Notes: generated by a model from the sequence alone, not told the origin. A DNA stretch of 64,000 nt from an uncultured Eubacteriales bacterium (GCA_963536495.1 CAUTAF010000002.1:74032-138031); one strand, 5' to 3'. Positions 7,530 to 30,446 are shown, numbered from the stretch's first letter. Numbers and translations: made by a program.

Positions 7530-7537
7530 AAAAATTC

Positions 7538-10528: not shown

Positions 10529-10552
10529 ACTATCACTAAAATTATTATATAA

Positions 10553-10592
10553 AAAAAGAGTTACTTTTATAATTAATAACTCTTTTTTTTAT
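10553..10592. terminator. rho-independent terminator hairpin
   Basis: AAAGAGTTA...TAACTCTTT followed by a T-run and preceded by an A-run. Confidence 0.5.
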
Positions 10593-10606
10593 ATTGATAT
10601 GTAAAA

Positions 10607-13363: not shown

Positions 13364-13439
13364 ATATTCCTCTTTTTCAATTTTAACACTATTAGATTAT
13401 TAGTTTAATAATATTAATTTATTTTTTATTTAAATTTGT

Positions 13440-14267
13440 CTACACTCCACCTTTAACATGATAAGAATCTGTTACTATCATAAAGGCTTCTTTATCTATT
13501 TCTTTAATTGTATCTTTTACATAATTATATTTAATAGTTGGTACTACACTCATAATAAGTTGATCATCTTTTCTACTATATGCACCTTTTACTTGAATTA
13601 ATGTTGCACCATAACCCTCTTTTTTCAAGAAATCTTCAACCTTTTTATCTTCGTTAGTTATAACATAAAATGCTTTATTACTAGATATTCCTAAAAAGAC
13701 TCTATCATATACATATCTACCTACAAATATAACTATTAAAGCATATATTAAATTCATAACATTTTTATTAACAAAAACTCCAGTTACTACTATAACAGTA
13801 TTAATCATATTGCTTATTTTCGCCATTGGTATATATGTCTTTTCATGTATTACTTCAGAAAGTAGTGTTATACCTCCTGAGTTAAATCCATTTTTAGAAT
13901 CAAGTCCTGTAGTAAATCCATTTATTAAACCTGCAATTAAAGCAATCATCAAAGGTTCAGTTATACCAATTTCAAAAGCAGTAGGTATATTTGAAGTTAT
14001 TTTTATAAAAAATGGAAGTAAAATACCAGCAAGTATAGAACTAGCTATCTTCTCTTTAGGTAAAAAGAAATTAGCTATAAATACTATTACAAGAGATACC
14101 AATAAAATTGTGATCGACGGATCTATATAAATTAAATTTTTAACTAAAATACCTATACCACTACTTCCACCTGCTACTATTTTTAAAGGTTCATAAAACA
14201 TATTAAAAACAACTGCACTTAAAAAAGTAGTAAAAACAAACACTATCCATTTAAAAGCTTTTTTCAT
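13440..14267 (-). CDS. YitT family membrane protein (DUF161/DUF2179)
   Basis: Polytopic N-terminal region plus C-terminal DUF2179-like segment ending in DSYHVKGG. Confidence 0.5.
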   Translation of the reverse strand: MKKAFKWIVFVFTTFLSAVVFNMFYEPLKIVAGGSSGIGILVKNLIYIDPSITILLVSLVIVFIANFFLPKEKIASSILAGILLPFFIKITSNIPTAFEIGITEPLMIALIAGLINGFTTGLDSKNGFNSGGITLLSEVIHEKTYIPMAKISNMINTVIVVTGVFVNKNVMNLIYALIVIFVGRYVYDRVFLGISSNKAFYVITNEDKKVEDFLKKEGYGATLIQVKGAYSRKDDQLIMSVVPTIKYNYVKDTIKEIDKEAFMIVTDSYHVKGGV

Positions 14268-15064
14268 CTATAACCTCCATAAGTTTCATATGCATCACTT
14301 ACTGATATAACGATATTTTTATCTATTTTTTCTAACCCTTTAGTAAGCATATAAAACTTTTCATTTTCTATTAAACAAAGTAAACATTTTTCTTCATTAC
14401 TTGTATATATCTCTGTAAGACCTAAAGATAAATTATTTATTAAATATTTTTTAACTTCTCTATCTTTTTTAGTTATTATATAGAAAAGTTTAGAATCACT
14501 AACACCAATTAACATATAATCAACTATTCTTTCTGTTATATAAAGTATTAATAAATTATAAACAAATAAATTAACTCCAAATACAAATAAACCTAAAAAT
14601 ACTATAAAACCATCTGTTAAAACATTAGCTGTTGCTAAAGACAAATTAGTATTTCGATAAATAATTAAAGCTATAATATCACTTCCGCCCTTAGAAAAAC
14701 CAGTTTTATATATAAGACCACTTCCTATACCATTTAATGCTATTGCACATACTGTAGATAATGGTAATGTTAATTCCAAATTTATTTTTATAAAAGAAGT
14801 TAAATAAATAAATATAGGTATTAACATAGTTCCAATTAACATATTATAAAAATCTTCTTGACTTAAAAATATAACAGCTATAATAATAAGAATAATTGTT
14901 GCAATCATAATAAATAAATTTATATCTATTCCTAAAAATTTATTAAAAACAATAGCAAGACCAGATACATCACCTATTACAAAATTATTTTCCAGCATAA
15001 AAAAGTTGTAACCAATAGCACAACATAATGAACCTAATATTAAATTAAATACTTTCTTTTTCAT
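14264..15064 (-). CDS. YitT family membrane protein, a paralog of the preceding gene
   Basis: Same architecture; C-terminal DAYETYGGY. Confidence 0.5.
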   Translation of the reverse strand: MKKKVFNLILGSLCCAIGYNFFMLENNFVIGDVSGLAIVFNKFLGIDINLFIMIATIILIIIAVIFLSQEDFYNMLIGTMLIPIFIYLTSFIKINLELTLPLSTVCAIALNGIGSGLIYKTGFSKGGSDIIALIIYRNTNLSLATANVLTDGFIVFLGLFVFGVNLFVYNLLILYITERIVDYMLIGVSDSKLFYIITKKDREVKKYLINNLSLGLTEIYTSNEEKCLLCLIENEKFYMLTKGLEKIDKNIVISVSDAYETYGGYR

Positions 15065-16170
15065 TTTTCCCCTTTTTTAAATATTCTTCTATAAAATGTT
15101 CTATTTTACCATTCATAACTTTTTCAACATCTGTTTCTTCATAATTAGTTCTATGATCTTTAACAAGTTGATATGGTGCCATAATATAACTTCTTATTTG
15201 TGATCCAAATTCTATATTTTTTTGTTCTTTATAATTAGAATTTTTTTCTTGTTCTTGTTTTTCTTGTTCTAATAAATACAATTTATTTTTTAATAGTTTT
15301 AATGCTGTTTCTTTATTTTGAATTTGACTTCTTTCAGTTTGACATGTAACAACTATATTAGTAGGTATATGGGTAATTCTTACTGCAGAATCAGTTGTAT
15401 TTACTCCTTGTCCACCTTTTCCACTTGATCTATAAACATCTATTCTTAAATCACTGGGATTTATTTCTATATTTATATCCTTATTAATAAGTGGTGTTAC
15501 AAGTACAGATGCAAAAGATGTATGTCTTCTAGCATTAGAATCAAATGGTGATATTCTAACTAATCGATGTACTCCTATTTCAGATTTTAAAAATCCATAA
15601 GCATATTCACCTTTTACTGAAAATGTTATAGATTTTAAACCTGCTTCATCCCCATCTAAATAATCAAGTATTTCTACTTTAAAGTCACTATTATCAAAAT
15701 ATCTTTGATACATTCTACTAAGCATTAAAACCCAATCACAAGCTTCCGTTCCACCTGCTCCCGAATGTATTTCAAATATTGCATCTTCTTTATCGTAATC
15801 TTCATTTAAAAGAGTTATTATCTTTAATTCTTCTACCCTTAAAATATCTTTTTCTATTTCTTTTTTCAAATTAACTACTTCTTCTTCACTACTTATTTCA
15901 ATAAGTTCTTTAAAACTATTTATATTATTTTCTATTAAAGATATTTCTTCTTTAGTCTTTTTTAAACTACTTAAATTAGACATAATATTTTTAGCATTAT
16001 TTGAATAATTCCAAAAATTTTCTTTATTAACTTCTTCTTCTAAGTCTTTTATTTTTTTATCTAAACTACCAAAGTCAAAGACAATCCTTTATATCATTTA
16101 AATCTTTTAATGATTTTTCTATATCTTTTTTTAGATTGTTAATTATATCTAAACTTTTATATTCCTCCAT
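15045..16170 (-). CDS. prfB: peptide chain release factor 2, requires a programmed +1 frameshift
   Basis: Frame-0 ORF MEEYKSLDIINNLKKDIEKSLKDLNDIKDCL ends at the in-frame UGA inside the minus-strand motif AAAGGATTGT CTT TGA C (TGA is the complement of plus 16075-16077). The +1 frame continues DFGSLDKK... into the annotated 312-aa ORF with GGQ and SPF motifs. Confidence 0.9.
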
Positions 16171-16257
16171 ATACACCTCTTTTACCTTATATAATAATAA
16201 CATAAATTTGCTTTAAATAAAATTAAGACTCTTATATAATTAATATAGGAGGTAATA

Positions 16258-16719
16258 ATGAAAATATATAAAAGAGGTATTTTATCTTTGTTATATAGTT
16301 TAGTTCTTGCTCTTATAGGAATACTATTTATTAATTATATTGTATATTGGTTAATAACTGAAAAAGCACCTGATTATATTTGGATATTTTATATAGTCCT
16401 TACTTTAAGTAGTTTATTTATGTTATATTCTTCTATATTTAAAGAAAACATAAGACTAGAAATAGAAAATAAATATTTAAAATATTATGAGAACAATAAA
16501 CTAACAGAAGAAATAGATTTATCTAAAGTATTTTATGGTTATAAAATAGTTGATAACTCTGTTATTGATTTATATTTTTACGAAAAAGATGAAGATACTA
16601 AAAAGATTTTAGATTGTGCACCTTTAGGTGTTAATAAATTTTATAAATTAATTGAAGATATAAAAAAAGAAACTAAAAATAAAGATTTTATAGAAGAAGC
16701 AAAAATTATAAAAAAATAA
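16258..16719 (+). CDS. hypothetical membrane protein
   Basis: Two N-terminal TM helices. Confidence 0.4.
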   Translation: MKIYKRGILSLLYSLVLALIGILFINYIVYWLITEKAPDYIWIFYIVLTLSSLFMLYSSIFKENIRLEIENKYLKYYENNKLTEEIDLSKVFYGYKIVDNSVIDLYFYEKDEDTKKILDCAPLGVNKFYKLIEDIKKETKNKDFIEEAKIIKK

Positions 16720-16731
16720 AGGAGATAAAAA

Positions 16732-17166
16732 ATGAACATTTTTATTATAGTTGGTATTATTGCAATAATGATTGCAGTAACTATTTTAAACATAATATAT
16801 TTAAAAAAAGGGAAAGAAGAAGATAAAAAATTTATGGAAGAAAATCCCGATATTTCAACAATAGAAGTATATTCTTCTAGCCATATAGTTAGTAGTAATA
16901 CAACTATTTATACAGTTGATGAAAAAATTCCACACTATTCAAAATCAAGTTTTAAAGGATTTGTTTTTATAGAAGAAGGTGAACATATACTTTCAGTAGG
17001 TGCAAGTTTTACAAGACCAGGAATTATGTATAAATCAGTAACTACAGATATTGGTCCAACTGATATAAAAGTTAAAATAGAAAAAAAGAAAAAATATATT
17101 TTAAAATATAACAAAAAAGAAGGTTTTTTTCTTGAAGAAATTGAAAAAAAACCTCTAAATAAGTAG
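16732..17166 (+). CDS. hypothetical membrane-anchored protein
   Basis: N-terminal TM helix; RBS GGAG upstream. Confidence 0.4.
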   Translation: MNIFIIVGIIAIMIAVTILNIIYLKKGKEEDKKFMEENPDISTIEVYSSSHIVSSNTTIYTVDEKIPHYSKSSFKGFVFIEEGEHILSVGASFTRPGIMYKSVTTDIGPTDIKVKIEKKKKYILKYNKKEGFFLEEIEKKPLNK

Positions 17167-17183
17167 ACATCATAAAAAATAGT

Positions 17184-17215
17184 AAATACACCTCATTTCG
17201 GAAGTGTATTTTTTA
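17184..17215 (+). terminator. rho-independent terminator
   Basis: AAATACAC-loop-GTGTATTT followed by TTTTT. Confidence 0.55.
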
Positions 17216-17480
17216 TGTCAGAAAAGAATAAACAATTATGTTTATCCACTATTATTAATATATATAATAGATATGTTATAACTTAGAAAATATCTAAATT
17301 TAATAATAATTAATTAGTAATTGATACATTAAACCATACAATAGCAAAAGAAATAGATGTAGATGATTAATCATTCATAGTAATCAAGACTTTAAATATA
17401 TATATTTACAAGAATATATTCAAGTTATATAAGAATAGATATTATTTTACAATACCATTAAATTAAAGTTAAAAATTAAG

Positions 17481-17510
17481 AAAAAGAGAAAAATAAATTT
17501 TCTCTTTTTT
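17481..17510 (-). terminator. rho-independent terminator ending the long minus-strand operon (downstream of the ABC-F gene)
   Basis: AAGAGAAAA-ATAAATT-TTTCTCTT with flanking A-run and T-run. Confidence 0.55.
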
Positions 17511-17560
17511 ATATAGTATTTTTTTATGATATCTACCGATTGTGATTCACATCATTTTCC

Positions 17561-19234
17561 CTAATACTTTTTTGTTTTTTTATATAACTTTTTTTCTTCT
17601 TTTTCAGCAGTTTTAGCTATTGTTTCTTTATATGAATCGTAATTACCAATATATTCTTTTATTTTACCATCTTCAAATACTATTACTTTATTTGCATATT
17701 TATTTATAAAAAATCTATCATGGCTTACAAAAATTAACGTTCCCCCAAAATCATCTAGTGCTTCTTCAAAAACTTCTTTAGTTGGAATATCTATATGATT
17801 AGTTGGTTCATCAAATATTAATGTATTAACTTCTTGTTGTAATAATTCAGCTAATTTAAGTCTCATTCTTTCCCCACCAGATAAATTTTTTAATTTTTTA
17901 TTAATAGTATCACCTTTAAACTTAAATCTTGATAGAATACTACGACTCTTTTCTTCTGGTAATCCTACTGATCTTGAAAAATATTCATATAAAGTTTTAT
18001 TTTCGTCTTCAAATTCAATAACTTGAGGTATATACCCTATTTTAACACTAGGTCCAATATAAATACTTCCACTACTTTCTAAACTTTGATTTCCCATAAT
18101 AGTCTTAACAAACGTTGATTTACCAGAACCATTTTCTCCAATTATAGCAACTTTATCTCCAGAGATAATTTCTAAATTAACATCATCTAATATAATATCT
18201 TTTTCTGGCGTAAAAACCGATAATTTATCTGCTACAATAATTCTGTTTGAAGATTTTCTTTTTTCATTAAAGGACATATTTATTTTCTTTTGTTCTAAAG
18301 GTTTTTTAATTGCTTCCAAACGCATTTTTTGTGCTCTTTCCCATAGATTCTTTCCTTGTCTTGTTAAAGAAGAACTATTTTTTGCCATTCCGGCTTGCAT
18401 AAATTGTTTTGCTTTTAGTTCTAATTGTTTAATACTTTCTTGTTCATCACCATATTGTGCTAATCTTTTTTGATACATTTCCTCACTAAGTTTTAAATAT
18501 CCCGAATAATTTGTAGCATATACTCTTCCAATCCCATCATCATCAATAGTTAAAACTTTATTAACCATTTTATCTAAAAAATATCTATCATGAGAAACTA
18601 TAACAGATGCACCCTTGAATGATTTTATATATTCTTCTAACCATTCAATTCTATTAATATCAAGATGGTTAGTTGGTTCGTCTAATATTAATAAGTCAGG
18701 TTTTAATAAAAGTATTTTTGCTAATTGAACAATAGTTTTTTCTCCTCCAGATAAATTTTTATATAACTCTTTTTTTATATTTTTATCAAGTTTCAAACCA
18801 TTTGTTACTGTACTAATTCTACTTTCAATTTCATATCCACCTAATAAGTTAAATTTTTCAATTAATGCACAATATTTTTCTAATTCTTTTTCGTTATAAT
18901 CTTCACTAATCTTTTTTTCATAAATTTTAATTTGTCTTTCAAGTTCATTTATTTCACTAAAAGCATCTTTTAAAACTTCATACACTGTTTTATCATTATC
19001 TATATTTACTATGCCTTGATCTAAATAACCAACTTTAGCTCCTTTTTTAATATTAATAGAACCAGTATCAGTTGATTCAAGACCCATAATTAATTTTAGT
19101 ATTGTAGATTTTCCACAACCATTAGGTCCAATTATTGCTATTGATTCTCCTTCGTTAAGAGAAAAAGAAACATCTTCAAATAAATGATTATATCCAAAGT
19201 TTTTTGATATTTTATTCACATCTAATAATAACAA
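17561..19234 (-). CDS. ABC-F family ATPase (tandem NBDs, no TMD), EttA/ARE-like
   Basis: Two Walker A motifs (GPNGCGKST, GENGSGKST), two signature motifs (LSGGEKT, LSGGERMR), inter-domain linker, size about 557 aa. Confidence 0.85.
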   Translation of the reverse strand: MLLLDVNKISKNFGYNHLFEDVSFSLNEGESIAIIGPNGCGKSTILKLIMGLESTDTGSINIKKGAKVGYLDQGIVNIDNDKTVYEVLKDAFSEINELERQIKIYEKKISEDYNEKELEKYCALIEKFNLLGGYEIESRISTVTNGLKLDKNIKKELYKNLSGGEKTIVQLAKILLLKPDLLILDEPTNHLDINRIEWLEEYIKSFKGASVIVSHDRYFLDKMVNKVLTIDDDGIGRVYATNYSGYLKLSEEMYQKRLAQYGDEQESIKQLELKAKQFMQAGMAKNSSSLTRQGKNLWERAQKMRLEAIKKPLEQKKINMSFNEKRKSSNRIIVADKLSVFTPEKDIILDDVNLEIISGDKVAIIGENGSGKSTFVKTIMGNQSLESSGSIYIGPSVKIGYIPQVIEFEDENKTLYEYFSRSVGLPEEKSRSILSRFKFKGDTINKKLKNLSGGERMRLKLAELLQQEVNTLIFDEPTNHIDIPTKEVFEEALDDFGGTLIFVSHDRFFINKYANKVIVFEDGKIKEYIGNYDSYKETIAKTAEKEEKKLYKKTKKY

Positions 19235-19301
19235 AATATAACACCTTCTTTCTAATTGTCATTTATTCTAACATTTTATAAGTTAAAATAAAACAATTTT
19301 T

Positions 19302-20102
19302 TTATAAAAACAATTCCGTTAATAAAATATAATACTCTATAACTTCATAATTTGGTTTAATTTCTAATCTTTCAAACAACATTTTTTCTGCTTCTGGTGT
19401 TTCATAATTTCTTCTCAATGATTTAACTAGTATTGCTATATCATACCAATAATCAGATACTCCTGCATCTCCCATATCAATAAATCCAGTTATTTTATCA
19501 TTTTCAAAAAAAATATTAGGTAAACTTAAATCTCCATGAGAAAAACATAGTTTTTCTGTTTTTGGTTTATGATTAATTAAATATTCATACGCTTTTTGGG
19601 GAGTACCAAATTTTTTGGTATTTTTTTCTTCCATTGTTGTTATTAAATTATTTTCTATATTATATTTAGCAATTGCTAATTTTATATCTAAAGTATTATA
19701 TATTAAGCATGTACTAATATCTAAGCTTTGTAAGATTTTAAGTGCTTTTGCTGCTAAATTAACAACATATTTCATATCATCAAAAATATCATCATCACAA
19801 ATCATTTTTCCTTTTAATTTTTCTGTTAGCATTATAGATTTATTTTTATCATATGAAAAATAAATTACCTTCGGAACTAAACCAGTATCCTTCAAATAAT
19901 TATAAATATAATATTCTTTATCCAAGTTATTTTCTTTAGATTCTTTAATAAAAAACACTTCATTATTTTTATTTGTTATTTCACTTACTTTATTACCAGA
20001 ACAACCTATTTCAATATCTTTTACAATAGATTTTTCTAATATTTTTTTTATAAATTTATCCATTATTTTTTTCTCCTCATTATTAACTCTTTTGCTGAAC
20101 AA
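19302..20102 (-). CDS. aminoglycoside/antibiotic phosphotransferase-like kinase (APH family)
   Basis: FSHGDLSLPNIFFENDKITGFIDMGDAGVSDYWYDIAIL closely follows the APH(3') catalytic-loop and DFG-like region. Confidence 0.65.
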   Translation of the reverse strand: MFSKRVNNEEKKIMDKFIKKILEKSIVKDIEIGCSGNKVSEITNKNNEVFFIKESKENNLDKEYYIYNYLKDTGLVPKVIYFSYDKNKSIMLTEKLKGKMICDDDIFDDMKYVVNLAAKALKILQSLDISTCLIYNTLDIKLAIAKYNIENNLITTMEEKNTKKFGTPQKAYEYLINHKPKTEKLCFSHGDLSLPNIFFENDKITGFIDMGDAGVSDYWYDIAILVKSLRRNYETPEAEKMLFERLEIKPNYEVIEYYILLTELFL

Positions 20103-20917
20103 GACTCACTACATATATTATTATCAATACCATGTCCAATTACAATACCTTGATTTTCTTCTTCATAATGAAAATCAGATCCAACACTTTCTAAAAGATT
20201 TAACTTTTTTGCTATTTCTTTATAAAATATAAAATCATCTTTAGTAAATGAAGAATGACAACTTTCAATTCCAATCAATCCTATTTTTTTTAAACTATCA
20301 ATAAGTTTAAAGATATTTTGTTTATCTATTTTTATTTTATTTGGATGAGCTATTATAGCAATACCTCCACTATCTATAATAAGTTTAATCGCTTTTTTAA
20401 TATCAATTTCATAACCAGGATATTCTGAATTATATTCTTGTATTTCTTTCGCTATATCTTGTGCTCTACTAAAACTATAATTATTTTTTATCAACAATCT
20501 TCTTATTTGCTCATCTATAAGCATATAATTATTTAAGTCTACTTGTTCTTTTATATAAGATGGAACATCTATTTTTTTGCAAGATATTTTATCTAAAGTT
20601 TCTATATGTCCCTTTTTTAGAACTTCTTTCATTCTAGATAATTCTTCGTTAAGTTCTTTATTATTTGAATCATAATCATACCCCAACAAATGAATACAAA
20701 TATTTTGATTCAAAAAATTATATTTTGTAGACAATTCTATTCCTTTTACGATTACAATATTGCTTTCAGATAAAATTTCATTAGATGGTATAATTATATC
20801 ATGATCAGTTATACTTAAAAAATCAACATTATTTTCTTTAGCTTTTTTTATTAAATTTTCAACTGATTCTGCACCATCGCTATATGTTGAGTGTACATGC
20901 ATATCTATATATTTCAT
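20063..20917 (-). CDS. PHP-domain phosphoesterase
   Basis: MHVHSTYSDG...ITDHD metal-binding motifs; overlaps the kinase gene by 40 nt. Confidence 0.65.
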   Translation of the reverse strand: MKYIDMHVHSTYSDGAESVENLIKKAKENNVDFLSITDHDIIIPSNEILSESNIVIVKGIELSTKYNFLNQNICIHLLGYDYDSNNKELNEELSRMKEVLKKGHIETLDKISCKKIDVPSYIKEQVDLNNYMLIDEQIRRLLIKNNYSFSRAQDIAKEIQEYNSEYPGYEIDIKKAIKLIIDSGGIAIIAHPNKIKIDKQNIFKLIDSLKKIGLIGIESCHSSFTKDDFIFYKEIAKKLNLLESVGSDFHYEEENQGIVIGHGIDNNICSESCSAKELIMRRKK

Positions 20918-20918
20918 A

Positions 20919-22388
20919 TTAAAGCTCCATTAATTCAATTATAACATTCATTAATATTTTCATTTTTTCAATTAATTCTAAATAATATGAAGAAAATGTT
21001 ATTCTTCCAACAATTTTTTCTGAATCTAATACTCCACAAGCAGTACCTGGAATAAATTTAATTTTACTATGTTTAAAAAGTTCAATTAAAAGATCATTAT
21101 CACTTTTAATTATATTTTCATTTATTTTCTTACTCTTTAATTTAGAAAAATCAATTAAAGCAAAGAAACCAGAAATTGGAATTATACCATTATAAAATGA
21201 TAAGATATTATTCCCTTTTTTATAATATTTTATTTCATCAATAGTTAAATTATTTTCAATGATTTTTCTATCTTTATTTGGTATAGTCAAAGCGCCAAGA
21301 ATAAAATATTTAAGTATTGATAAATTTAATTCATATTGTTTGTTAATATCAACTAAATATTTTTTTCTATAATTAGCTTTCATATAATTATCAGTAAAAA
21401 CAGAAGCTAATGCTATTTGGCTAAGCATAGAAACAGAATCTTGATCTAAAAATATATTATCTCTAATATCTTGAATAAAATATTTATTAGCTACAATAAA
21501 TCCAGCTCTTAATGATGCTAAAGAATAAGATTTAGATATACCAAAAAATGAAATAACATTATCTTTATACTCATCAAATGAATTTAAAGAAAAAGAACTA
21601 TATTCACTATCATAAACAGAATCTCTATAAATTAAATCTTCTATTATTAAAACCTTTTGTTTATAACATAATTTAGCTAATTCATGCAAATATTTTTTAT
21701 CTTTATAACTATAAGAAATACCTAAAGGATTATTTGGATTTTGAAAATATATAGCTGCTACCTTAGGAATATACTCATCTTTTTTATGAATTAAAAATAG
21801 TTTTTTATTAATATCAATTATTTGTTTTTCGAGGTTTTCTAAATTAATTTTCCAATTTAAATTTTGATCAAATTTAACCAATTCAATATTAGAGCCTAAT
21901 TTAAGCGGCTCATACAAAAATAAATTATATGTAGGCACTGGTATTAAAATAACATCATTTTTTCTTAAAACTGTTTTTAATATTAAAGAATATGCTTGGG
22001 TGGTAGATGAAGTTATAATTATTTCTTCTTCATTTCTAGATTTTATTCCAATTGAATTTAAATATCCAATTAAATTTTTTTTCACTTTAGAATCTCCTAT
22101 AGTATTTGGATATTGATTGGTATTATTTTCTTTTAAATAATAATCAATATCCTTTTTAACAAATTCATATTGTTTCCATTTTAATGGATTACCTCCACCA
22201 AAACTGATTACTTTTTCATCTTTTAGATATTTATAAATATCATATCTATATACATTAGAAGATTTTATTATTTTTTTTAAGTCTTCACTTAAATAATCAA
22301 AATTAATATTAATATTAGGACAATAATTTTCTTTTAACAAATATGATTTTCTTTTTAATAAATCATTCAACACAAAATCATTTTTCAT
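20919..22388 (-). CDS. PLP-dependent aminotransferase, class I/II fold, with N-terminal extension
   Basis: SKSYSLASLRAGF (PLP Lys, Arg), NPNNPLG. Confidence 0.65.
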   Translation of the reverse strand: MKNDFVLNDLLKRKSYLLKENYCPNININFDYLSEDLKKIIKSSNVYRYDIYKYLKDEKVISFGGGNPLKWKQYEFVKKDIDYYLKENNTNQYPNTIGDSKVKKNLIGYLNSIGIKSRNEEEIIITSSTTQAYSLILKTVLRKNDVILIPVPTYNLFLYEPLKLGSNIELVKFDQNLNWKINLENLEKQIIDINKKLFLIHKKDEYIPKVAAIYFQNPNNPLGISYSYKDKKYLHELAKLCYKQKVLIIEDLIYRDSVYDSEYSSFSLNSFDEYKDNVISFFGISKSYSLASLRAGFIVANKYFIQDIRDNIFLDQDSVSMLSQIALASVFTDNYMKANYRKKYLVDINKQYELNLSILKYFILGALTIPNKDRKIIENNLTIDEIKYYKKGNNILSFYNGIIPISGFFALIDFSKLKSKKINENIIKSDNDLLIELFKHSKIKFIPGTACGVLDSEKIVGRITFSSYYLELIEKMKILMNVIIELMEL

Positions 22389-23256
22389 AATATACCTCGT
22401 TTATATAATTAATTATTTTTTTATAATCTTTTATTTTTTTATCCATTCTAAAATATAATGTTTTATATCTTAACTTTTCTATATTAGAAAAAGAAGCATT
22501 TTTACAAAAAATTTCAAAAGGTAATTTTTCTATTGTAGTTTGTAAAATATCACTGTTATTCTCTTCCATATATTTATATAGTTTATCCTCTAATACAGAA
22601 AAACTTTCTTTATCAATATCAATTACAAATACTACTCTATGATAAGAAAAATTATCACAATCAATTAATCTGCCAGGAATCATTAAATTATCTTTTATAT
22701 ATTTATATTTTTTCTTTTTTTTTAAATAATTGAATCTATAAAAAAATATTTTTAAAAATAATCTTATTTTATCTATTGAGTTTATTTTAATTTTTGTTTT
22801 TAAATCTTTTTTAGAATATAAATAAGAATATTTTCCAAATGAAATTGGTTTTCTATTATTAAAAGAATAAATTATATAATCATATATTCCATAGTTATTT
22901 TTAATACCACTTTGACAAGAATCCAATATTTTAATAATCTTAGTTTTACTTTTGCTATAATAAATTTTATTATCAATAACAATATTTCCATATTGTTCAA
23001 CAAAAACTATTATTTTTGTTTTAAAAGAAATTTTTTTATTTATTTCTTTTTTATCTATCAAAAAATTATCATCTATATCAACAAATATTGGAATCAATCC
23101 GTTGCTTATAATAGTTTCAATTACACTTTCACATAACGTAACTGGAACTATTACTTCACTCCCTTTTTCAAAATTTAAATTTTTAAAAATTATATCAAAT
23201 GAATTAGTTCCACTTAATGCTATATTTTTAATAAAATTTTTCATTTTTATCTCCAT
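22378..23256 (-). CDS. divergent DegT/DnrJ/EryC1-like protein
   Basis: SGTNSFDII...GSEVIVP...PIFVDID and DSCQSG...SFNNRKPISFG resemble the DegT layout but are degenerate. The likely start is an internal Met (MKNFIKN) rather than the longest-ORF start at 23337. Confidence 0.4.
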   Translation of the reverse strand: MEIKMKNFIKNIALSGTNSFDIIFKNLNFEKGSEVIVPVTLCESVIETIISNGLIPIFVDIDDNFLIDKKEINKKISFKTKIIVFVEQYGNIVIDNKIYYSKSKTKIIKILDSCQSGIKNNYGIYDYIIYSFNNRKPISFGKYSYLYSKKDLKTKIKINSIDKIRLFLKIFFYRFNYLKKKKKYKYIKDNLMIPGRLIDCDNFSYHRVVFVIDIDKESFSVLEDKLYKYMEENNSDILQTTIEKLPFEIFCKNASFSNIEKLRYKTLYFRMDKKIKDYKKIINYINEVYYEK

Positions 23257-24190
23257 AATCATATAATTCTTCATATAAACTATGTTTTTTATTTTTTTCA
23301 TAATAAAAATTAAAATATAATTCTTGGTAAGAACCAAATGATAAATTCCAATTTTCTATTTCTTGAAAAACAGACCCTTCAAAATCTAAATATTTAGATA
23401 TATTATTTTTTTTCAAATATTTAATTAACTCAAAATATAATTTAGGAATAGGCGATGCATAATTTTTATTATAATAACTATACATTATATAACAATTAAT
23501 TTTATCCCAAACTACACAAATTCCACCAATTACTTTATTTTTATAAACAGCTATAAAACATTCACCTTTTTTATTTTCAATTGCTTTTTCAATATATTTC
23601 TTAACAAATTTTTCACTTGTTTTAGGACCATAATTATATTCCCATTTTAATGATTCTTGAAAATCATATAATGATATATCACCACTTTTAATATTAATTT
23701 CTGATATGCTTTTTATATCTCTTTTTCTATCTCTACAAAAAGAAGAAAATATACTATCAAGAGAATCAGATAAATTTATTTTATATGTATATCTGACTTC
23801 TGGAACAAAACCATTTTTTACACATGAAATTATATCTTTAATATACGGATCAAAAGAAAAAGAAATCGAATTATAATATTTTTTTAAATATTTTAGCATT
23901 TTATTTAGAACTTCCCTAGTATATAATAATTTTTTACGATTAGACGAAAAATTAAAAAGCAATACTGGTCCACCATATGGAATATACATAGTAGATTGTT
24001 CTAATGATTTATTTTTTTCAAACAGAGGAAAAAAAGCAACAAGCTTTTTATTATCATACACACATAATAATCTTTTAACTTTTTTTAATTTCAAAAAGAA
24101 TTCATAAGCAAAAGCTGTACCATTTAATGAATTGTCTACTAAAAAATCAATGTTATTTATATCACTTAGTTTATTAATCTTTACTTCCAT
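23228..24190 (-). CDS. FemAB/Acetyltransf_6-like (GNAT-fold) acyl- or aminoacyl-transferase
   Basis: C-terminal GNAT-like core (CFIAVYKNKVIGGICVV...YLDFEGS); paralogous to the next gene. Confidence 0.4.
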   Translation of the reverse strand: MEVKINKLSDINNIDFLVDNSLNGTAFAYEFFLKLKKVKRLLCVYDNKKLVAFFPLFEKNKSLEQSTMYIPYGGPVLLFNFSSNRKKLLYTREVLNKMLKYLKKYYNSISFSFDPYIKDIISCVKNGFVPEVRYTYKINLSDSLDSIFSSFCRDRKRDIKSISEINIKSGDISLYDFQESLKWEYNYGPKTSEKFVKKYIEKAIENKKGECFIAVYKNKVIGGICVVWDKINCYIMYSYYNKNYASPIPKLYFELIKYLKKNNISKYLDFEGSVFQEIENWNLSFGSYQELYFNFYYEKNKKHSLYEELYDYGDKNEKFY

Positions 24191-24986
24191 TTTTTATTAT
24201 TTCAAAATATACTCTTTTTATGCTATTTGTTTTTAGCAAATCATATATTTGATTATTCCTTCCAAATAAATCTATATTTAAAGTTTCTTCATCAGAAATT
24301 TTTTCTATTTGATGAAGTAACGCTATTATTCCTGCATTATTTTTTCTTCCTATATCAGTAGCTCCCCATTTTGATGCATAATAAATATTATCATATTTAT
24401 ATAACAATGAATAAGCTATTGGACTATTTTCAATATAAACTACTGTAATATAAGAAAATTTTTTTAAAGATAATAAAGAAATATGTTCGTAATACATATT
24501 AAGCATATCTGTTTTTTCTTTTCTCTTCCAACTATTTTGATCTATATATAAAATATCTTTCCAAAGTTCTAAAACATTATCTTCACTATCAACAATATTA
24601 AGTCTTTCAGATAATTTTTTACATTTTTTTATTAATCTTTTACAATTTTTACTTCTAGAAGATATATAATCTTTATAGTTTCCTTTTGTTATTTTTATAA
24701 ATGGTGCTTCCCATTCACAATTAATTTTAAGATTATATTTTGAATTTAAATAACTAAATACTTTTGAATTTTTATTAATATTTCTAAATTTTATAGCATA
24801 ATTTTTATTTATTTTATTTATTAAAAAAACATCATTTTCATTTAAATGAAAATCAAAATATTGAAAGCAATTTTTACCATCATAATATCTAATTATATCT
24901 ATATTATCAGATGAAGAAATATTTCTAACTGGAAAACGATAATATAAAGAAAGTCTATAGTTTTTATCGCTAGTAAAATTATACAT
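24174..24986 (-). CDS. FemAB/Acetyltransf_6-like transferase
   Basis: ITVVYIENSPIAYSLLYKYDNIYYASKWGAT...IDLFGRN pattern. Confidence 0.4.
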   Translation of the reverse strand: MYNFTSDKNYRLSLYYRFPVRNISSSDNIDIIRYYDGKNCFQYFDFHLNENDVFLINKINKNYAIKFRNINKNSKVFSYLNSKYNLKINCEWEAPFIKITKGNYKDYISSRSKNCKRLIKKCKKLSERLNIVDSEDNVLELWKDILYIDQNSWKRKEKTDMLNMYYEHISLLSLKKFSYITVVYIENSPIAYSLLYKYDNIYYASKWGATDIGRKNNAGIIALLHQIEKISDEETLNIDLFGRNNQIYDLLKTNSIKRVYFEIIKNGSKD

Positions 24987-26145
24987 TTTTATAATTCTCC
25001 AAATTTTGTTTTATATACTTTAAATCATTTTTACTTAGTTTAGAATTCAAATTTAACCAAGCAGTTCTTTGTAATAAATTTAAACTTTTATTACAATTAA
25101 CAACTTTATAATTATTATATGGATAATTATTTTTATATGGAGATAGTGAATTTATAAAAGTATTATAAGACGGTAAATAATTAGATATTTTTTTATGAAA
25201 TTCAATATTATTTTTATTCATATAAGAGATAAAATTATCGCATTCTTCTTCGTTATCAAAAGTTAATGATAAACTCAAATACACTGCTTGAATATCTTTT
25301 ATTTCTTTTCTAATATTATATCCAGTTAATTTGTTAGTTAAAACATTATAAATATATTTTTGTCTTTTAACTATTTTTTGATACTTATCTAATTGACCAT
25401 CTAAAATAGCACTTTCTAAATCTGTTATTTTTAAATTTTCACCATAAGAAATATATTTTTTATTCCACACTGGCATTTGATTGAATTCTCTTTCTCCACC
25501 ATTATCTGCAAAACGTTTTGCTACATTCATATTTTTTTTTGTAGTAAAACCTCCTCCTTCTCCGCAAGTAATTATTTTAGAAGACTGAAAACTAAATGCA
25601 CTACTATCACCAAAAGTTCCAGTATATTTATTCTTATATTTTGTTCCAAAAGATTGAGCTACATCTTCTATCAATATTAAATTATATTTTTTACAAAGCA
25701 TCATTATTTTTTCCATATCACATGGAAAACCTTGAAAATGCACAACTACTATAGCTTTTGTTTTTTTAGTTATCTTTTTTTCTATATCATTAACATCAAT
25801 ATTAAACGTATTATCTATTTCAGCAAAAACAGGAATTGCACCAACGTTTAAACATGCTGTAGCAGTAGCTATAAAAGATAAACATGGGACAATTATTTCA
25901 TCACCGTACCCAATATTATTAGAAATTAAAGCTAATTTTAACGCTGAAGTTCCATTGTTAACTAATAAGAAGTCTTGAGAAAACATTAAACTTAATCTTT
26001 TTTCAACTTTATCTGTTTTATACTGCATATTTACACCATCATACCTAAATAGACTTTTGCTATTTAACATAGATAATACCAAAATTTTTTCTTTAAAACC
26101 TATATAGTTCAAACCATAAAAAGCATCTGTACATATTTTTCTCAT
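24979..26145 (-). CDS. DegT/DnrJ/EryC1/StrS family PLP-dependent sugar aminotransferase or dehydratase
   Basis: GTSALKLAL, GDEIIVP, IPVFAEID, FSFQSSKIITCGEGG (PLP lysine). Confidence 0.8.
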   Translation of the reverse strand: MRKICTDAFYGLNYIGFKEKILVLSMLNSKSLFRYDGVNMQYKTDKVEKRLSLMFSQDFLLVNNGTSALKLALISNNIGYGDEIIVPCLSFIATATACLNVGAIPVFAEIDNTFNIDVNDIEKKITKKTKAIVVVHFQGFPCDMEKIMMLCKKYNLILIEDVAQSFGTKYKNKYTGTFGDSSAFSFQSSKIITCGEGGGFTTKKNMNVAKRFADNGGEREFNQMPVWNKKYISYGENLKITDLESAILDGQLDKYQKIVKRQKYIYNVLTNKLTGYNIRKEIKDIQAVYLSLSLTFDNEEECDNFISYMNKNNIEFHKKISNYLPSYNTFINSLSPYKNNYPYNNYKVVNCNKSLNLLQRTAWLNLNSKLSKNDLKYIKQNLENYKNV

Positions 26146-26148
26146 TTG

Positions 26149-27252
26149 TTAGTTCCTTTCAAAATCTTTAATTATTTCATTTATTCCATTCTTATTTATA
26201 TTTTTATAGAATTTTTTTCTTAAATCAAAATTATCTTCTTTATATTCAAAAAATTTTTTTATTTCTTTATTAAAATTTTTATAATCATATTTTTTCAAAT
26301 TCTCTAAAACTAATTTTATTCCCAAGCTTTCTTCTAAATAATATTTTATTTTTTTACATTTATTATTTTCTTGAAAGAAAAAATCTAAATTAAATTTTTT
26401 AAATTCTAATCTTTGCAAATATTGACTGTAATTAATAGGTAATAAAAATAACACCTTTATATTAGTTGATATTATTTCATTAAAATTACCTAGACCAGGA
26501 GACATAATTGCATAACTAGATTTTTTAATTATTTTTCTATATAAATTATTATCAAAACTATCTATAACAATATTATTATCAAATTTGATATTTTGTTTTA
26601 AGTAATTAATTATAAAATTTCCACCTGCAATATATACTTTTTCAAAATTTTTAATATAAGAATTTTTAAGAATAAAATTAACAGTTTTTAGATAAAAATT
26701 ATTGATAAAAGAGGAATCATACATATATGATTCTGCTCCACCTAAAGATATTAATAAATTATTTTTTTTACTATTATCTATAAATTTTTCTATTTTTCTT
26801 AATGATCCAACTTTTATTATATTAGACATATTTTTTGCTATTCTATTAATATTTTTATCACAAGATATTACATTAGAAATATAATATCTTTTTAAATTTA
26901 TCAACTCTTTTTCTATAAAGTCCCACATCCAAAAAATATTATCAATTAAATATAAATTAGATAAATGATATTTATTTATTAAAAAAATCAAAATATCAGT
27001 TGTTTCAATAGAAATAATTTTATCTGCTGTAAGAAAATACTTCTTATATTTTTCAAATTTTTTTATGTCATAATCATATGCTATTAATTTATCAAAAACA
27101 TTTTCTTTATTCGCTTTTTCTATGCACAATTTTGGACCAATAAAAATAAATTCATATTTATTTTTGTTCATTTTTGTTACTAAATGTATCGCTGTATTAA
27201 TAGGTCCATATCCAAATGCATCTGCTAATATTAAGATTTTATTTTTTTTCAT
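26149..27252 (-). CDS. putative GT-B fold glycosyltransferase or hydrolase (GT28/PseG-like)
   Basis: N-terminal ILILADAFGYGPINTAIHL pattern reminiscent of MurG/PseG; weak. Confidence 0.3.
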   Translation of the reverse strand: MKKNKILILADAFGYGPINTAIHLVTKMNKNKYEFIFIGPKLCIEKANKENVFDKLIAYDYDIKKFEKYKKYFLTADKIISIETTDILIFLINKYHLSNLYLIDNIFWMWDFIEKELINLKRYYISNVISCDKNINRIAKNMSNIIKVGSLRKIEKFIDNSKKNNLLISLGGAESYMYDSSFINNFYLKTVNFILKNSYIKNFEKVYIAGGNFIINYLKQNIKFDNNIVIDSFDNNLYRKIIKKSSYAIMSPGLGNFNEIISTNIKVLFLLPINYSQYLQRLEFKKFNLDFFFQENNKCKKIKYYLEESLGIKLVLENLKKYDYKNFNKEIKKFFEYKEDNFDLRKKFYKNINKNGINEIIKDFERN

Positions 27253-28246
27253 ATATTTTTTTGTTCATGTAAACGTTAGCATTATCACATTTGCTTTTGC
27301 ATTTACTACATTCTATCTCAAGTTCTTTTAATAACATACTATATTTTTTATTGCCAATAATTTGATTTAAAGGATTATCTATAAGATTACCAATAGCATA
27401 ATAATCTTCGTCTCTATGAACTGAACAATCACATGGATAAACATTTCCACTTACACAATCAATAAACAATGTATATTTTAATATCTTACAAGGTATTTTT
27501 TCTTTTCTGTAATCATCTCCATTATCAGAATATAAATTTTCTTCAAAATAATTAATATCGTCATATAGTAATTCAATATTATATTTTTTTATATTTTGTT
27601 TATATTTTTTTATATTTTTATTGTAATATTCAATTTGTTTTTTAGAAAAATAATATTCTGGACATTCTTTAATTATTATTGGATTTAAATAATCATACTC
27701 TACTGTTTTTTTCATTTCAATAAATTTTCCAAAATCATCAATGTTTTCAAAATTCAATACATGATTAATAACTATTTTAACATTTGGCAATTCATTTTTA
27801 ATTAAATTAATAGCTTTAGTTGCTATATCAAATATCCCTTTCACCCCTCTAATAGAATCATGAATTTCTGATTTAAAACTATCTATAGAAAAGAAAATAG
27901 CTTTAATATTATATTTTTTTAATTTTTTAATGTTAGATTTCGTTAAAAAAAAACCATTTGTAATAAAAACTATATTTAAACCTAATAAAGTTGCATATTC
28001 AAAATATTCATATATTTTTTTATTCGCTAAAGGCTCTCCTCCTCCAGTAAAATGAATATATTTACCACCATTGTTTTTAACATCCTTTAAAATTTCCTTT
28101 ACATCTAACTTTGATTCTTTCTCTTTTTTTTCATGTATATCACAAAATTTACATTTAGCATTACAAATATTAGAAATAGAAAGAAAATAATAGAGTGGAT
28201 TTTGACTGGTATTTTCTAATAAATCATTAAATAATTTATAATACAT
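27239..28246 (-). CDS. radical SAM enzyme with C-terminal SPASM/twitch-like cysteine cluster
   Basis: CNAKCKFC (Cx3Cx2C) and GGGEPL at the N-terminus; C-terminal CKILKY..CVSGNVYPCDC...CSKCKSKC. Confidence 0.75.
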   Translation of the reverse strand: MYYKLFNDLLENTSQNPLYYFLSISNICNAKCKFCDIHEKKEKESKLDVKEILKDVKNNGGKYIHFTGGGEPLANKKIYEYFEYATLLGLNIVFITNGFFLTKSNIKKLKKYNIKAIFFSIDSFKSEIHDSIRGVKGIFDIATKAINLIKNELPNVKIVINHVLNFENIDDFGKFIEMKKTVEYDYLNPIIIKECPEYYFSKKQIEYYNKNIKKYKQNIKKYNIELLYDDINYFEENLYSDNGDDYRKEKIPCKILKYTLFIDCVSGNVYPCDCSVHRDEDYYAIGNLIDNPLNQIIGNKKYSMLLKELEIECSKCKSKCDNANVYMNKKIYEKK

Positions 28247-28691
28247 TTAATACCTCCTTAATTTTATTCATTATAAGATTGATAGTATTATCTGATATTA
28301 AATCTTCATAATATACAAATTCACATTCAGTTAACTCTTTTAATCCCATTATCATAGGACTATACTCTAAGTTTTTATCTAAAAAAACTATCATCTTCTT
28401 TTTTTGATTACTTGCCCATCCAATTTCAACATGAACTCCTCCACTAATTGGGTTACCTGGTATTGCTAAAAATAAATCACATTCACTTATAGCTTTAGTA
28501 TCAGCTATAATACTTTCAGAAGGGCTAATATATTTTTCTCCCCACTCTTCCCTTTCTTGACTACAAAAATAATCTAAATTATTTTCTTTAAAAAAATTAA
28601 TTATTTTTTCAAAAAACCAACGATTTTCTAAAATAATATCTGAATCTTCTTCACAAAATTGTGAAAATGGAGATGCAAAAAATATTTTCAT
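28236..28691 (-). CDS. nucleoside 2-deoxyribosyltransferase superfamily protein (NDT/BlsM/MilB-like)
   Basis: IFFASPFS...DLFLAIPGNPISGGVHVEIGWA follows the NDT-family layout. Confidence 0.55.
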   Translation of the reverse strand: MKIFFASPFSQFCEEDSDIILENRWFFEKIINFFKENNLDYFCSQEREEWGEKYISPSESIIADTKAISECDLFLAIPGNPISGGVHVEIGWASNQKKKMIVFLDKNLEYSPMIMGLKELTECEFVYYEDLISDNTINLIMNKIKEVLNVL

Positions 28692-28692
28692 A

Positions 28693-30009
28693 TTATTTAT
28701 TTCCTTTCATTTCATCAAATTCTTTTTTGATATATTTATTTGTTCTATATATTTTTTCTTCTCTTATTTTTTTTATTTTTTCTACTCCAAAATATTCTTC
28801 CATTTGAATAATCATATTATGAACATCAGCTATTTCTTCAATAACATTTGGTAAAAGTTTATTATTATAGTCTTCTCTTTTATATTTACAAAGCGCTTGT
28901 ATTAATTCTCCCATTTCTTCTATAAGAACATTACTTTGACAATCAAATCCCCAAAAATCAATATAGAATTTTAAAAGAGCATTTGTTTCATTATCAGTTA
29001 AAGTTAAATCTTTTTTAATTAGTTCATAAATTCTAGTAGCTTCATCAAATTCTATTTGACCAACTTTATTATTATTAAATTTTTTTACATACTCTTTATA
29101 TCTACGTACTATTTCTTTTTTAGCATGTTTTTCGGCTATAGAAATATTTAAAATTCCACTTTCTATTTCGTTAATAAAAAATTCAATAATAGATTTTTTA
29201 TCTTGATCACAATCTGGAACTAATGTTTTTAACAATAAAAATGTTTCTTTGTCTCTTTCATCAATACATCTAAGCTCAGCATATTTTTGTAAATATTCAT
29301 AATCTATACAATCATTACCTCTAACATCACACATTGCCATAGACGCAGATAAGTTTATAGGATTATTAATTGAAAGTGTCGGTACTAAAAATGTTTCAAT
29401 TTTTCTATAAGAAGAAATTTTTTTATTTTTATTTTCATAAGCTATTTGCGATATACATGTAGCAAATTTTCCCGAGTTAGCTCCTGGACCAACTACAAAT
29501 ACTAATTTTTCTTTACACGGTATATATTCGTTTTTAAATATTCCATCTTTTGAAAAAACTTCTTTTATATTATAAGGATAGTTTGAATCTTCAAACTGTT
29601 TATATACATTATAACCTAAGTTTTTTAGCTTTTTTATATAATTATCTATTTTAGAATTTTTTCTATATCTCGTAATTGAAATATTAAATTTTATATTATC
29701 TTTAACAAAAACATTTATTAATCTTAACACTTCATCCATATATGACTTACAATTATCTTTTCTTTTTTTATTTTTTATAATTGATATTGAATTAATACAT
29801 ATTATCATCTCAAAATCAACATTTAAACTTTTTATTATTTCATATTTATTATCCGGATTATAACCTACAAAAACTCTAGCTGCATGTTGATCATCAATTA
29901 TTTTTCCACCAACTTCAATATATATTCTTTCTTTAATATCGTTTATAATTTCTAATATTTTTTCTTTTTCTTTTAAAAAATATTTTTTATTATCAAAATT
30001 TTTTTTCAT
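28693..30009 (-). CDS. two-domain protein: N-terminal P-loop-like region plus C-terminal MazG-like NTP pyrophosphohydrolase domain
   Basis: VVGPGANSGKF (GxxxxGK); C-terminal EEMGELIQAL...EEIADVHNMI, an EExxE pair typical of MazG; first gene of the operon with AAGGAA RBS. Confidence 0.5.
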   Translation of the reverse strand: MKKNFDNKKYFLKEKEKILEIINDIKERIYIEVGGKIIDDQHAARVFVGYNPDNKYEIIKSLNVDFEMIICINSISIIKNKKRKDNCKSYMDEVLRLINVFVKDNIKFNISITRYRKNSKIDNYIKKLKNLGYNVYKQFEDSNYPYNIKEVFSKDGIFKNEYIPCKEKLVFVVGPGANSGKFATCISQIAYENKNKKISSYRKIETFLVPTLSINNPINLSASMAMCDVRGNDCIDYEYLQKYAELRCIDERDKETFLLLKTLVPDCDQDKKSIIEFFINEIESGILNISIAEKHAKKEIVRRYKEYVKKFNNNKVGQIEFDEATRIYELIKKDLTLTDNETNALLKFYIDFWGFDCQSNVLIEEMGELIQALCKYKREDYNNKLLPNVIEEIADVHNMIIQMEEYFGVEKIKKIREEKIYRTNKYIKKEFDEMKGNK

Positions 30010-30413: not shown

Positions 30414-30446
30414 ACAAAAAAACTTCCAAATTGGAAGTTTTTTATT
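30414..30446. terminator. bidirectional terminator downstream of lysS
   Basis: AACTTCCAA-TT-TGGAAGTT with A-run and T-run flanks. Confidence 0.6.

Follow-up and report, generated by a model that had tools for sequence, protein, structure and literature searches.

Predicted cytosine supply by a PyrJ_N-MazG/CMP N-glycosidase gene pair at the head of a putative blasticidin/mildiomycin-type operon in an uncultured low-GC bacterium

We analysed a stretch of 64,000 nt from an uncultured Eubacteriales bacterium (GCA_963536495.1, CAUTAF010000002.1:74032-138031; the window from here on), focusing on the two genes that open a 12-gene operon on its minus strand. The first encodes a fusion of a PyrJ/DUF1846-type N-terminal domain with a MazG-like domain (438 amino acids, aa), and the second a 151-aa cytidine monophosphate (CMP) N-glycosidase of the MilB/BlsM/BcmB type. 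On balance, we favour the view that this pair is the precursor-supply head of an operon making a cytosyl-pyranoside peptidyl nucleoside of the blasticidin/mildiomycin type that is aimed at the ribosome.

In the proposed route, cytidine triphosphate (CTP), possibly formed from uridine triphosphate (UTP), would be turned into CMP and then cytosine, feeding a ribosome-targeting cytosyl nucleoside. The MazG-like domain would hydrolyse CTP to CMP and pyrophosphate and so supply the glycosidase, which, judging by homology and active-site residues, would cut the N-glycosidic bond of CMP to give free cytosine and ribose 5-phosphate. The PyrJ-type domain is expected to bind a pyrimidine and/or adenine nucleotide and may form CTP from UTP, adenosine triphosphate (ATP) and ammonia, in which case the fusion would convert UTP to CMP without draining the cellular CTP pool. 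A MilC/BlsD-like glycosyltransferase would then join the free cytosine to a uridine diphosphate (UDP)-sugar, a radical S-adenosylmethionine (SAM) enzyme, aminotransferases and FemAB-like transferases would process the product further, and an APH kinase, a PHP phosphatase and an ABC-F protein would shield the producer. The steps differ in strength: cleavage of CMP by the 151-aa protein and use of the released cytosine by the glycosyltransferase are well supported predictions, and CMP formation by the MazG-like domain is proposed with moderate confidence, its fold and motifs having been found and CTP being suggested as substrate by the adjoining CMP glycosidase on one side and by the PyrJ-type domain fused to it in one clade on the other. 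CTP synthesis by the fused N-terminal domain is the least certain step, because the usual C-terminal domain of PyrJ is missing.

The CMP glycosidase, its MazG-like partner and the predicted cytosine consumer

Both open reading frames (ORFs) lie on the minus strand where an earlier note on this DNA had placed them (Table 1), and the motifs that it quoted (FFASPF, GGVHVEIGWA, GPGANSGK, EEMGE and EEIAD) are all present. The note had likened the 151-aa protein to NDT (nucleoside 2-deoxyribosyltransferase), BlsM and MilB enzymes. Comparison with solved structures bears this out and sharpens it to the CMP N-glycosidase branch acting on unmodified CMP, with matches to BcmB (4JEN, E = 1.6e-24), BlsM (5VTO, E = 4.2e-21) and MilB (4JEM, E = 8.7e-21), whereas several true nucleoside deoxyribosyltransferases match at E about 0.3 only. 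The conserved catalytic glutamate, which the note had proposed to look for, is found as Glu89, the equivalent of MilB Glu103; it stands in GGVHVEIGWAS and is kept in six orthologues.

Using the printed alignment together with published work on MilB (PMC4081090, PMC10603095), we observe that MilB F17 (ribose versus deoxyribose), F22 (base stacking), E62 (which recognises cytosine through its N4 amino group and N3), D78 (ribose and base binding), S97/G99 (phosphate binding) and E103 (catalysis) correspond to F4, F9, E48, D64, S83/G85 and E89, with FFASPF occupying aa 4 to 9. An F17-equivalent Phe signals ribose rather than deoxyribose, deoxy-specific enzymes carrying Tyr, and an E62-equivalent Glu signals cytosine (PMC10603095). 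At the position of MilB R23 the 151-aa protein has Ser10, and its orthologues have Ser or Ala. Arg or Lys at this position recognises a 5-hydroxymethyl group, such enzymes always being linked to a MilA/ThyA hydroxymethylase, while the CMP-specific BlsM has Met (PMC4081090). Since neither Arg nor Lys is present here and profile searches of the operon proteins found no MilA/ThyA homologue or other base-modifying enzyme, plain CMP is the predicted substrate, and the 151-aa enzyme groups with the CMP-type BlsM rather than with MilB and BcmB. The enzyme adds a new member to a known family.

The predicted consumer of the cytosine, the 367-aa product of the gene that follows the radical SAM gene, showed no Pfam, NCBIfam or PDB sequence match, even as a profile, and was placed by structure prediction, a full-library hidden Markov model (HMM) search and source names. 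Its AlphaFold2 (AF2) model (predicted local distance difference test score, pLDDT, 93.5) adopts a GT-B fold of the GT1 type, with YjiC, OleD/OleI and MurG as Foldseek neighbours (E about 1e-8). The HMM search returned ~1,100 cluster representatives of the family, and IMG names two members "hydroxymethylcytosylglucuronate/cytosylglucuronate synthase"; these match the 367-aa protein at 5e-20 by BLASTP and 99.9% by hhalign. Furthermore, the family occurs in natural fusions with a homologue of the 151-aa glycosidase at the N-terminus (P0322, P0348), with a DegT aminotransferase and with a radical SAM/SPASM enzyme, all of which are Rosetta-stone links between pathway steps. The fusion proteins observed are P0298, P0319, P0322 and P0348 (522 to 555 aa), P0231 and P0249 (761 to 781 aa) and P0350 (720 aa). 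The earlier note had suggested that the pair supplies a modified base, nucleoside or sugar-nucleotide to the downstream aminotransferases. The idea of supply stands, though it was too loose: the base is predicted to be released free and unmodified, no MilA/ThyA being encoded in the operon, and the likely direct consumer is this cytosylglucuronate synthase homologue instead of the aminotransferases.

With respect to the C-terminal domain of the 438-aa protein, the MazG-type identity proposed in the note is supported. The domain matches phrog_2245, a phage nucleoside triphosphate (NTP) pyrophosphohydrolase family (E = 1.6e-22; phrog_4856, 1.6e-4). A profile built from 33 family members matches the solved MazG-like proteins 5IE9 (E = 3.9e-5), iMazG 2Q73 (3.6e-4), AF1178 4QGP (2.6e-3), YpjD 2GTA (3.2e-3) and 1VMG (0.018), and 24 of the 33 members match Pfam MazG (best E = 2.9e-5). 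The MazG signal is significant only with this wider profile and with PHROGs: Pfam and NCBIfam searches of the domain itself gave sub-threshold MazG and PRA-PH matches only, a profile of its close homologues reached E about 0.18 to iMazG, and hhalign of the C-domain family against E. coli MazG detected no similarity. The domain (~95 residues) is all-helical in its AF2 model (pLDDT 89.7), whose top Foldseek matches in the PDB are all of the MazG type, though at E of 0.2 to 2, and whose matches in BFVD are phage NTP pyrophosphohydrolases at E = 2.5e-4 and TM-scores of 0.6 to 0.8. Neither acidic motif (EExxE, EExxD) varies among the 28 fusion proteins or the 33 members of the wider family, and both stand in register with 5IE9 and 2Q73; the invariant residues include W353, G354, Q358, S359, E364, E365, E368, E391, E392, A394 and D395. 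None of the 245 or more members of this MazG-like family detected carries a precomputed Pfam domain, and the C-terminal domain is a distant branch of the MazG-like superfamily without Pfam classification, to be filed at superfamily level only.

The pairing of the two functions is conserved, with a MazG-like gene or domain directly upstream of the glycosidase in the window and in all nine of the related loci of biosynthetic gene cluster type that were examined (L001-L006, L015, L016 and L008). The same operon is present in six metagenome-assembled genomes (MAGs) of Bacilli and Clostridia, from goat rumen and other samples, and on further metagenome contigs. Its first gene is a PyrJ_N-MazG fusion in L001-L003, while L004-L006 and L016 carry a free-standing 99-aa MazG-like gene directly upstream of the glycosidase and no PyrJ-like domain. 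L015 holds a different cluster (4608-21314) that begins with a fusion 55% identical to ours, followed by a 422-aa protein in which an N-terminal glycosidase domain is fused to ~280 residues without assignment.

Three further observations concern these relatives. The L015 cluster also encodes an 825-aa glycosyltransferase::aminotransferase fusion, and genes for dCMP-deaminase-like, Ham1 (ITPase), NUDIX and small kinase proteins lie just upstream of it. In L016 the glycosidase gene (5427-5881) is split into ORFs of 114 and 36 aa in an otherwise intact operon, reflecting either a frameshift/pseudogene or an assembly error. A related core is found in a different cluster of the cultured Paenibacillus periandrae (L007, GCA_022458865.1, JAJNMU010000025.1, 5070-12395), with an NDT-like glycosidase, a radical SAM/SPASM enzyme, a glycosyltransferase of the same family and a DegT protein, and no MazG-like gene; the cluster also has an arginase, a second radical-SAM enzyme and a kinase, and this species could be a culturable entry point.

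Alternative readings of the fusion protein and the pair

The 438-aa protein's N-terminal domain is covered by PF08903 from aa 4 to 324 (237.7 bits, E = 1.9e-70) and matches the solved UPF0371 proteins 7F00 (E = 6.5e-53) and 3BH1 (E = 5.8e-48). The earlier note had seen a P-loop-like element here. The motif is indeed phosphate-loop-like, but it departs from canonical Walker A spacing, and the identity of the domain had been missed: GPGANSGK is the invariant PGxxSGK of the DUF1846 N-terminal domain, spaced GxxxGK or GxxxxxGK and with Phe after the Lys, as against the canonical GxxxxGK[ST]. We recovered 27 full-length homologues (433 to 458 aa, 45 to 63% identical) with the same two-domain architecture. 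Across the resulting 28 fusion proteins 61 positions of the N-terminal domain and 21 of the 76 in the MazG core are invariant, with mean pairwise identities of 54% and 66%, respectively, and both domains are under purifying selection. The domain also matches the phage family phrog_30143 (29038-30009, minus strand; E = 4e-54, profile length 504, function not assigned), so DUF1846/PyrJ-like proteins occur in phage genomes too.

PyrJ, the name given to Spd_0310 (the 7F00 protein) in a dual transposon-sequencing (Tn-seq) preprint of 2024, was purified and converts UTP to CTP with ammonia, not glutamine; loss of pyrJ together with pyrG is synthetically lethal, and the double mutant can be rescued with cytidine (bioRxiv 10.1101/2024.09.24.614635). 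Its authors describe the N-terminal domain as P-loop ATPase-like and speculate that the cytidine-deaminase-like C-terminal domain aminates, ATP hydrolysis driving the deaminase reaction in reverse (bioRxiv 10.1101/2024.09.24.614635). The other published function of SPD_0310/7F00, hemin binding, was set aside in favour of this enzymatic and genetic evidence for a CTP synthase. Canonical PyrJ proteins have 485 to 495 aa, with PF20921 after residue ~340. PF20921 was not found in the 438-aa protein or in the fusion family, whose alignment to canonical members stops near aa 340, and since this defining domain is missing the 438-aa protein is not to be filed as PyrJ. Because hhalign of the fusion family against E. 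coli PyrG found nothing, no sequence link to the PyrG amidoligase domain can be claimed either.

Several findings weigh against the supply route. The domain in which the PyrJ authors speculate that amination happens, PF20921, is the one missing from the fusion; what is left of PyrJ is divergent, at 30 to 39% identity to canonical members, and keeps only 48 of the 138 positions that are invariant in nine canonical PyrJ proteins, 90 being changed. Given the four related operons without it, the PyrJ-like domain is dispensable for the core pathway, and to our knowledge the known Streptomyces pathways need no CTP pyrophosphatase. Close relatives of the MazG-like domain stand between gyrB and gyrA in other genomes, resembling general house-cleaning. 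Three profile scores also fall short: PF05014, the Pfam NDT model, gives the 151-aa protein 26.5 bits versus a gathering threshold of 28.8 (a model derived chiefly from deoxyribosyltransferases; direct comparison with PDB entries gives a much stronger match), PF03819 (MazG) gives the C-terminal domain 15.1 bits versus 22, and TIGR04466 gives the radical SAM enzyme 77.6 bits versus a cut-off of 400 and is not its top NCBIfam match.

The alternative that survives best concerns the N-terminal domain, which may, as a serious if minority possibility, no longer make CTP and serve only as a nucleotide-binding ATPase, with the cytosine coming from the cellular CTP/CMP pool; such a domain could phosphorylate another substrate, or it could act on the MazG domain by gating it or making it oligomerise. 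The missing amination domain, the changed invariant positions and the four operons that do without the domain all fit this alternative, as does the score of the 438-aa protein against the NCBIfam equivalog NF010184 (243.2 bits versus a cut-off of 631), while the retention of most charged invariant PyrJ residues and of the PGxxSGK loop, together with the 61 positions held constant across the fusion family, fits it poorly. The role of the PyrJ C-terminal domain is, moreover, its authors' speculation. Free-standing N-domain-only DUF1846 proteins of ~340 aa were also observed (L017 4001-5032, L018 1528-2586, P0033, P0036, P0040 and P0045-P0048), some of them in archaeal-type contexts (topoisomerase VI, THUMP), and since no PF20921 gene lies near them the N-terminal domain may be an autonomous unit, which likewise argues against a loss of function.

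At the other extreme, and as a tentative idea that we hold to be doubtful, the 438-aa protein would be a self-contained UTP-to-CMP converter in which the PyrJ N-terminal domain by itself suffices for ammonia-dependent CTP synthesis. If this is true, catalysis in canonical PyrJ does not take place in its cytidine-deaminase-like domain, the N-terminal domain hands CTP straight to the MazG-like domain, and together with the glycosidase three active sites lead from UTP to free cytosine. Antibiotic production would then be insulated from the cellular CTP pool, and the fusion would represent a natural domain-swap experiment on PyrJ.

MazG-type enzymes are classically sanitisers of the NTP pool. It is conceivable, though in our judgement unlikely, that the MazG-like domain serves house-cleaning or self-protection by destroying a toxic triphosphate, be it a phosphorylated intermediate or a non-canonical NTP, instead of supplying CMP. 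Such a role would suit the many relatives that are phage NTP pyrophosphohydrolases, the free-standing 89- to 96-aa relatives between gyrB and gyrA in other Firmicutes MAGs, and an operon that already has other self-protection genes. It would not account for the position of the MazG-like gene, which is always directly upstream of the CMP glycosidase and never beside the resistance genes, which lie at the opposite operon end, nor for the clade in which the domain is fused to one derived from a CTP synthase, and the expected pyranosyl nucleoside product has no obvious route to a 5'-triphosphate.

The free-standing relatives (L013 8001-8291, L014 6696-6965) adjoin dnaA, dnaN and recF, and the gyrB-gyrA slot is a conserved housekeeping position of a small pyrophosphatase family lacking annotation; the antibiotic operon probably recruited such a housekeeping pyrophosphatase. 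In E. coli K-12 (L019, NC_000913.3 2908029-2910685) mazG lies directly upstream of pyrG, in the order relA, mazE, mazF, mazG, pyrG, eno, an unexplained adjacency that echoes the fusion of a MazG-like domain to a CTP-synthase domain.

Far less probable is a pair acting on deoxynucleotides (dCTP to dCMP to cytosine and deoxyribose 5-phosphate, in the manner of DNPH1/Rcl together with a dCTPase), or a 151-aa protein that is a true NDT. Deoxyribosyltransferases do occur in the NDT superfamily, as do dNMP hydrolases, the weak matches in Pfam and PHROGs are named accordingly, and the MazG-like DCTPP1 and RS21-C6, among the fold matches, prefer dCTP; against this stand the contrast between E about 0.3 to true NDTs and 1e-24 to CMP glycosidases, and the presence of the ribose-specifying Phe and of the phosphate-binding Ser and Gly. 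We give just as little credence to an operon for cell-surface amino-sugar or peptidoglycan decoration headed by two ordinary nucleotide salvage genes. Envelope biosynthesis does often involve DegT aminotransferases and FemAB-like transferases, and the operon sits among housekeeping genes; but it has no flippase, polymerase or lipid-carrier transferase, it combines homologues of a CMP glycosidase and a cytosylglucuronate synthase with a BlsE-like enzyme, a set specific to cytosyl nucleosides, and its last genes encode an APH kinase and an ABC-F ribosome-protection protein, both kept in synteny. A reading as anti-phage defence was rejected, there being no PADLOC matches and a biosynthetic context.

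Operon content, limits and genomic setting

The operon runs from 30009 to 17561 and is flanked by two terminator-like hairpins (Table 1). A 400-nt AT-rich spacer separates the hairpin after lysS from the 438-aa gene, consistent with the operon opening at this gene, as the earlier note had it. Only 1 nt lies between the stop of the 438-aa gene and the start of the 151-aa gene, which in turn overlaps the radical SAM gene by 11 nt.

Table 1. Features of the operon and of its first two products, with window coordinates
Feature	Coordinates	Strand	Basis
Fusion protein, PyrJ/DUF1846 N domain and MazG-like domain, 438 aa	28693-30009	-	PF08903, PDB, homologues
DUF1846_N domain, aa 4-324	29038-30000	-	PF08903, 7F00, canonical-PyrJ comparison
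GPGANSGK, aa 174-181, phosphate-loop-like motif of DUF1846 N domain	29467-29490	-	
MazG-like all-alpha NTP pyrophosphohydrolase domain, aa ~345-430, in place of PF20921	28720-28977	-	phrog_2245, family profile, AF2, Foldseek
EEMGE (EExxE), aa 364-368, first acidic metal-binding motif	28906-28920	-	aligns to EEMGEL of 5IE9
EEIAD (EExxD), aa 391-395, second acidic motif	28825-28839	-	aligns to EEELGD of 5IE9
CMP N-glycosidase, MilB/BlsM/BcmB type, NDT superfamily, 151 aa	28236-28691	-	PDB matches, key residues
Glu89 codon, equivalent of catalytic MilB Glu103, HVEIGWAS motif	28425-28427	-	
Radical SAM/SPASM enzyme	27239-28246	-	Pfam; best solved relative BlsE
GT-B glycosyltransferase, 367 aa, MilC/BlsD-type homologue, predicted cytosine consumer	26149-27252	-	
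DegT/DnrJ/EryC1 sugar aminotransferase, MilD-like	24979-26145	-	PF01041, E 1e-70
Two FemAB-like/Acetyltransf_6 proteins, 270 and 320 aa	23228-24986	-	weak Pfam matches; in all related loci
DegT-like 319-aa protein and 489-aa class I/II aminotransferase	20919-23337	-	Pfam
PHP phosphatase, APH(3')-like kinase, ABC-F ribosome-protection protein	17561-20917	-	Pfam, NCBIfam
Terminator-like hairpin 3' of lysS, upstream operon boundary	30417-30443	-	
Terminator-like hairpin 3' of ABC-F gene, downstream operon boundary	17184-17211	-	

The radical SAM enzyme matches the cytosylglucuronate decarboxylase BlsE (7VOB) at E = 3.4e-15, in its N-terminal half only. The FemAB-like proteins are candidate aminoacyl-tRNA-dependent peptide-bond formers. 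At the end of the operon, the ABC-F protein passes the ribosome-protection cut-off (NF000355, 449.9 bits versus 380), and the APH(3')-like kinase reaches 197.9 bits with APH_3p versus a cut-off of 205. The PHP, APH and ABC-F genes presumably form a self-resistance and activation module, in which the APH/PHP pair together with the ABC-F protein suggests a cycle of self-protection by phosphorylation and later dephosphorylation and a ribosomal target.

The window has ~22% G+C and a strong strand bias. The middle of the operon (22001-28000) is at 18.6 to 21.5% G+C versus 24 to 26% in the flanking housekeeping genes, which include lysS, ftsH, tilS, gltX, cysS, secA and murA; this could reflect horizontal acquisition or weaker constraint. 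Rfam gave no matches in the window and no riboswitch or leader RNA was found upstream of the operon, and a promoter scan was uninformative in DNA this rich in AT (131 sites found versus 145 expected). The exact 438-aa protein is present in 99 blocks of the contig collection, and the host is most likely an uncultured, very low-GC gut or rumen Bacillota.

Two observations from elsewhere in the window are also recorded. The prfB gene carries a programmed +1 frameshift site, CTT TGA C (16074-16080, minus strand), after a 30-codon leader (ORF1 ATG at 16170; ORF2 15045-15983), and this site indicates that TGA is read as stop, as in genetic code 11. A 314-aa ORF (8782-9726, minus strand) with the Fic motif HPFFDGNGRTIR, noticed in translation only, likely encodes a Fic/DOC-family AMPylase.

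Comparison with known systems

Blasticidin S, mildiomycin, gougerotin and other cytosyl-pyranoside antibiotics are known from actinomycetes, as are the clusters that make them. The operon described here would place the core logic of that chemistry among Bacillota of the gut or rumen that are abundant, uncultured and very low in GC. Its tailoring and resistance genes are different, which makes a new ribosome-targeting nucleoside the probable product. In the literature searched, coverage of which was partial, nothing relevant was found on MazG in nucleoside-antibiotic clusters or on such clusters in Firmicutes, nor were the PyrJ_N-MazG architecture and the obligatory MazG-like/glycosidase pairing found. 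The PyrJ_N-MazG head would represent a precursor-supply device new to nucleoside pathways, hinting at the way in which an anaerobe with a small genome obtains its CMP and cytosine. PyrJ was reported as a CTP synthase only in 2024 and the roles of its domains are guesses. The fusion and the N-domain-only proteins offer a direct test of which domain does the chemistry. Neither the MazG-like family nor the cytosylglucuronate-synthase-like glycosyltransferase family currently has Pfam coverage.

Compared with MilB, BlsM and BcmB of the mildiomycin, blasticidin S and bacimethrin pathways, the 151-aa protein shares size, fold family, the catalytic Glu in HVEIGWAS, the ribose Phe, the cytosine-reading Glu, the phosphate Ser/Gly and a place at the start of a cytosine-based pathway. 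It differs in having Ser where these have Arg23, Met and Lys, respectively, in its host, an uncultured Bacillota with ~22% GC instead of an actinomycete, and in its translational coupling with a MazG-like gene, an arrangement seen in no described pathway. The 438-aa protein resembles PyrJ over its N-terminal ~325 residues, including the PGxxSGK loop and most charged invariant residues, whereas it swaps the whole of PF20921 for a MazG-like domain and belongs to an antibiotic-type operon instead of a housekeeping context. With the small MazG-like enzymes (5IE9, conserved in Bacillus; iMazG 2Q73/2Q5Z; YpjD 2GTA; phrog_2245) its C-terminal domain has in common the helical core of ~95 residues and the EExxE...EExxD motifs; unlike them, it falls under the Pfam threshold and is fused to a PyrJ N-terminal domain or, in related operons, stands free beside a CMP glycosidase.

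At the level of whole clusters, the operon has counterparts of MilB/BlsM, MilC/BlsD and MilD and a candidate counterpart of MilG/BlsE, together with a putative equivalent of MilH by function (tRNA-dependent aminoacyl transfer). In this respect it resembles the mildiomycin pathway and the Streptomyces clusters for blasticidin S, mildiomycin and arginomycin. Unlike those clusters, it lacks arginine-modifying, ATP-grasp and methyltransferase genes, uses FemAB-like transferases, has the extra PyrJ_N-MazG head, and ends in an APH/PHP/ABC-F tail where the Streptomyces clusters rely on deaminase or leucylation-type resistance. The operon is, in sum, a new variant of the Streptomyces-type cytosyl-nucleoside clusters.

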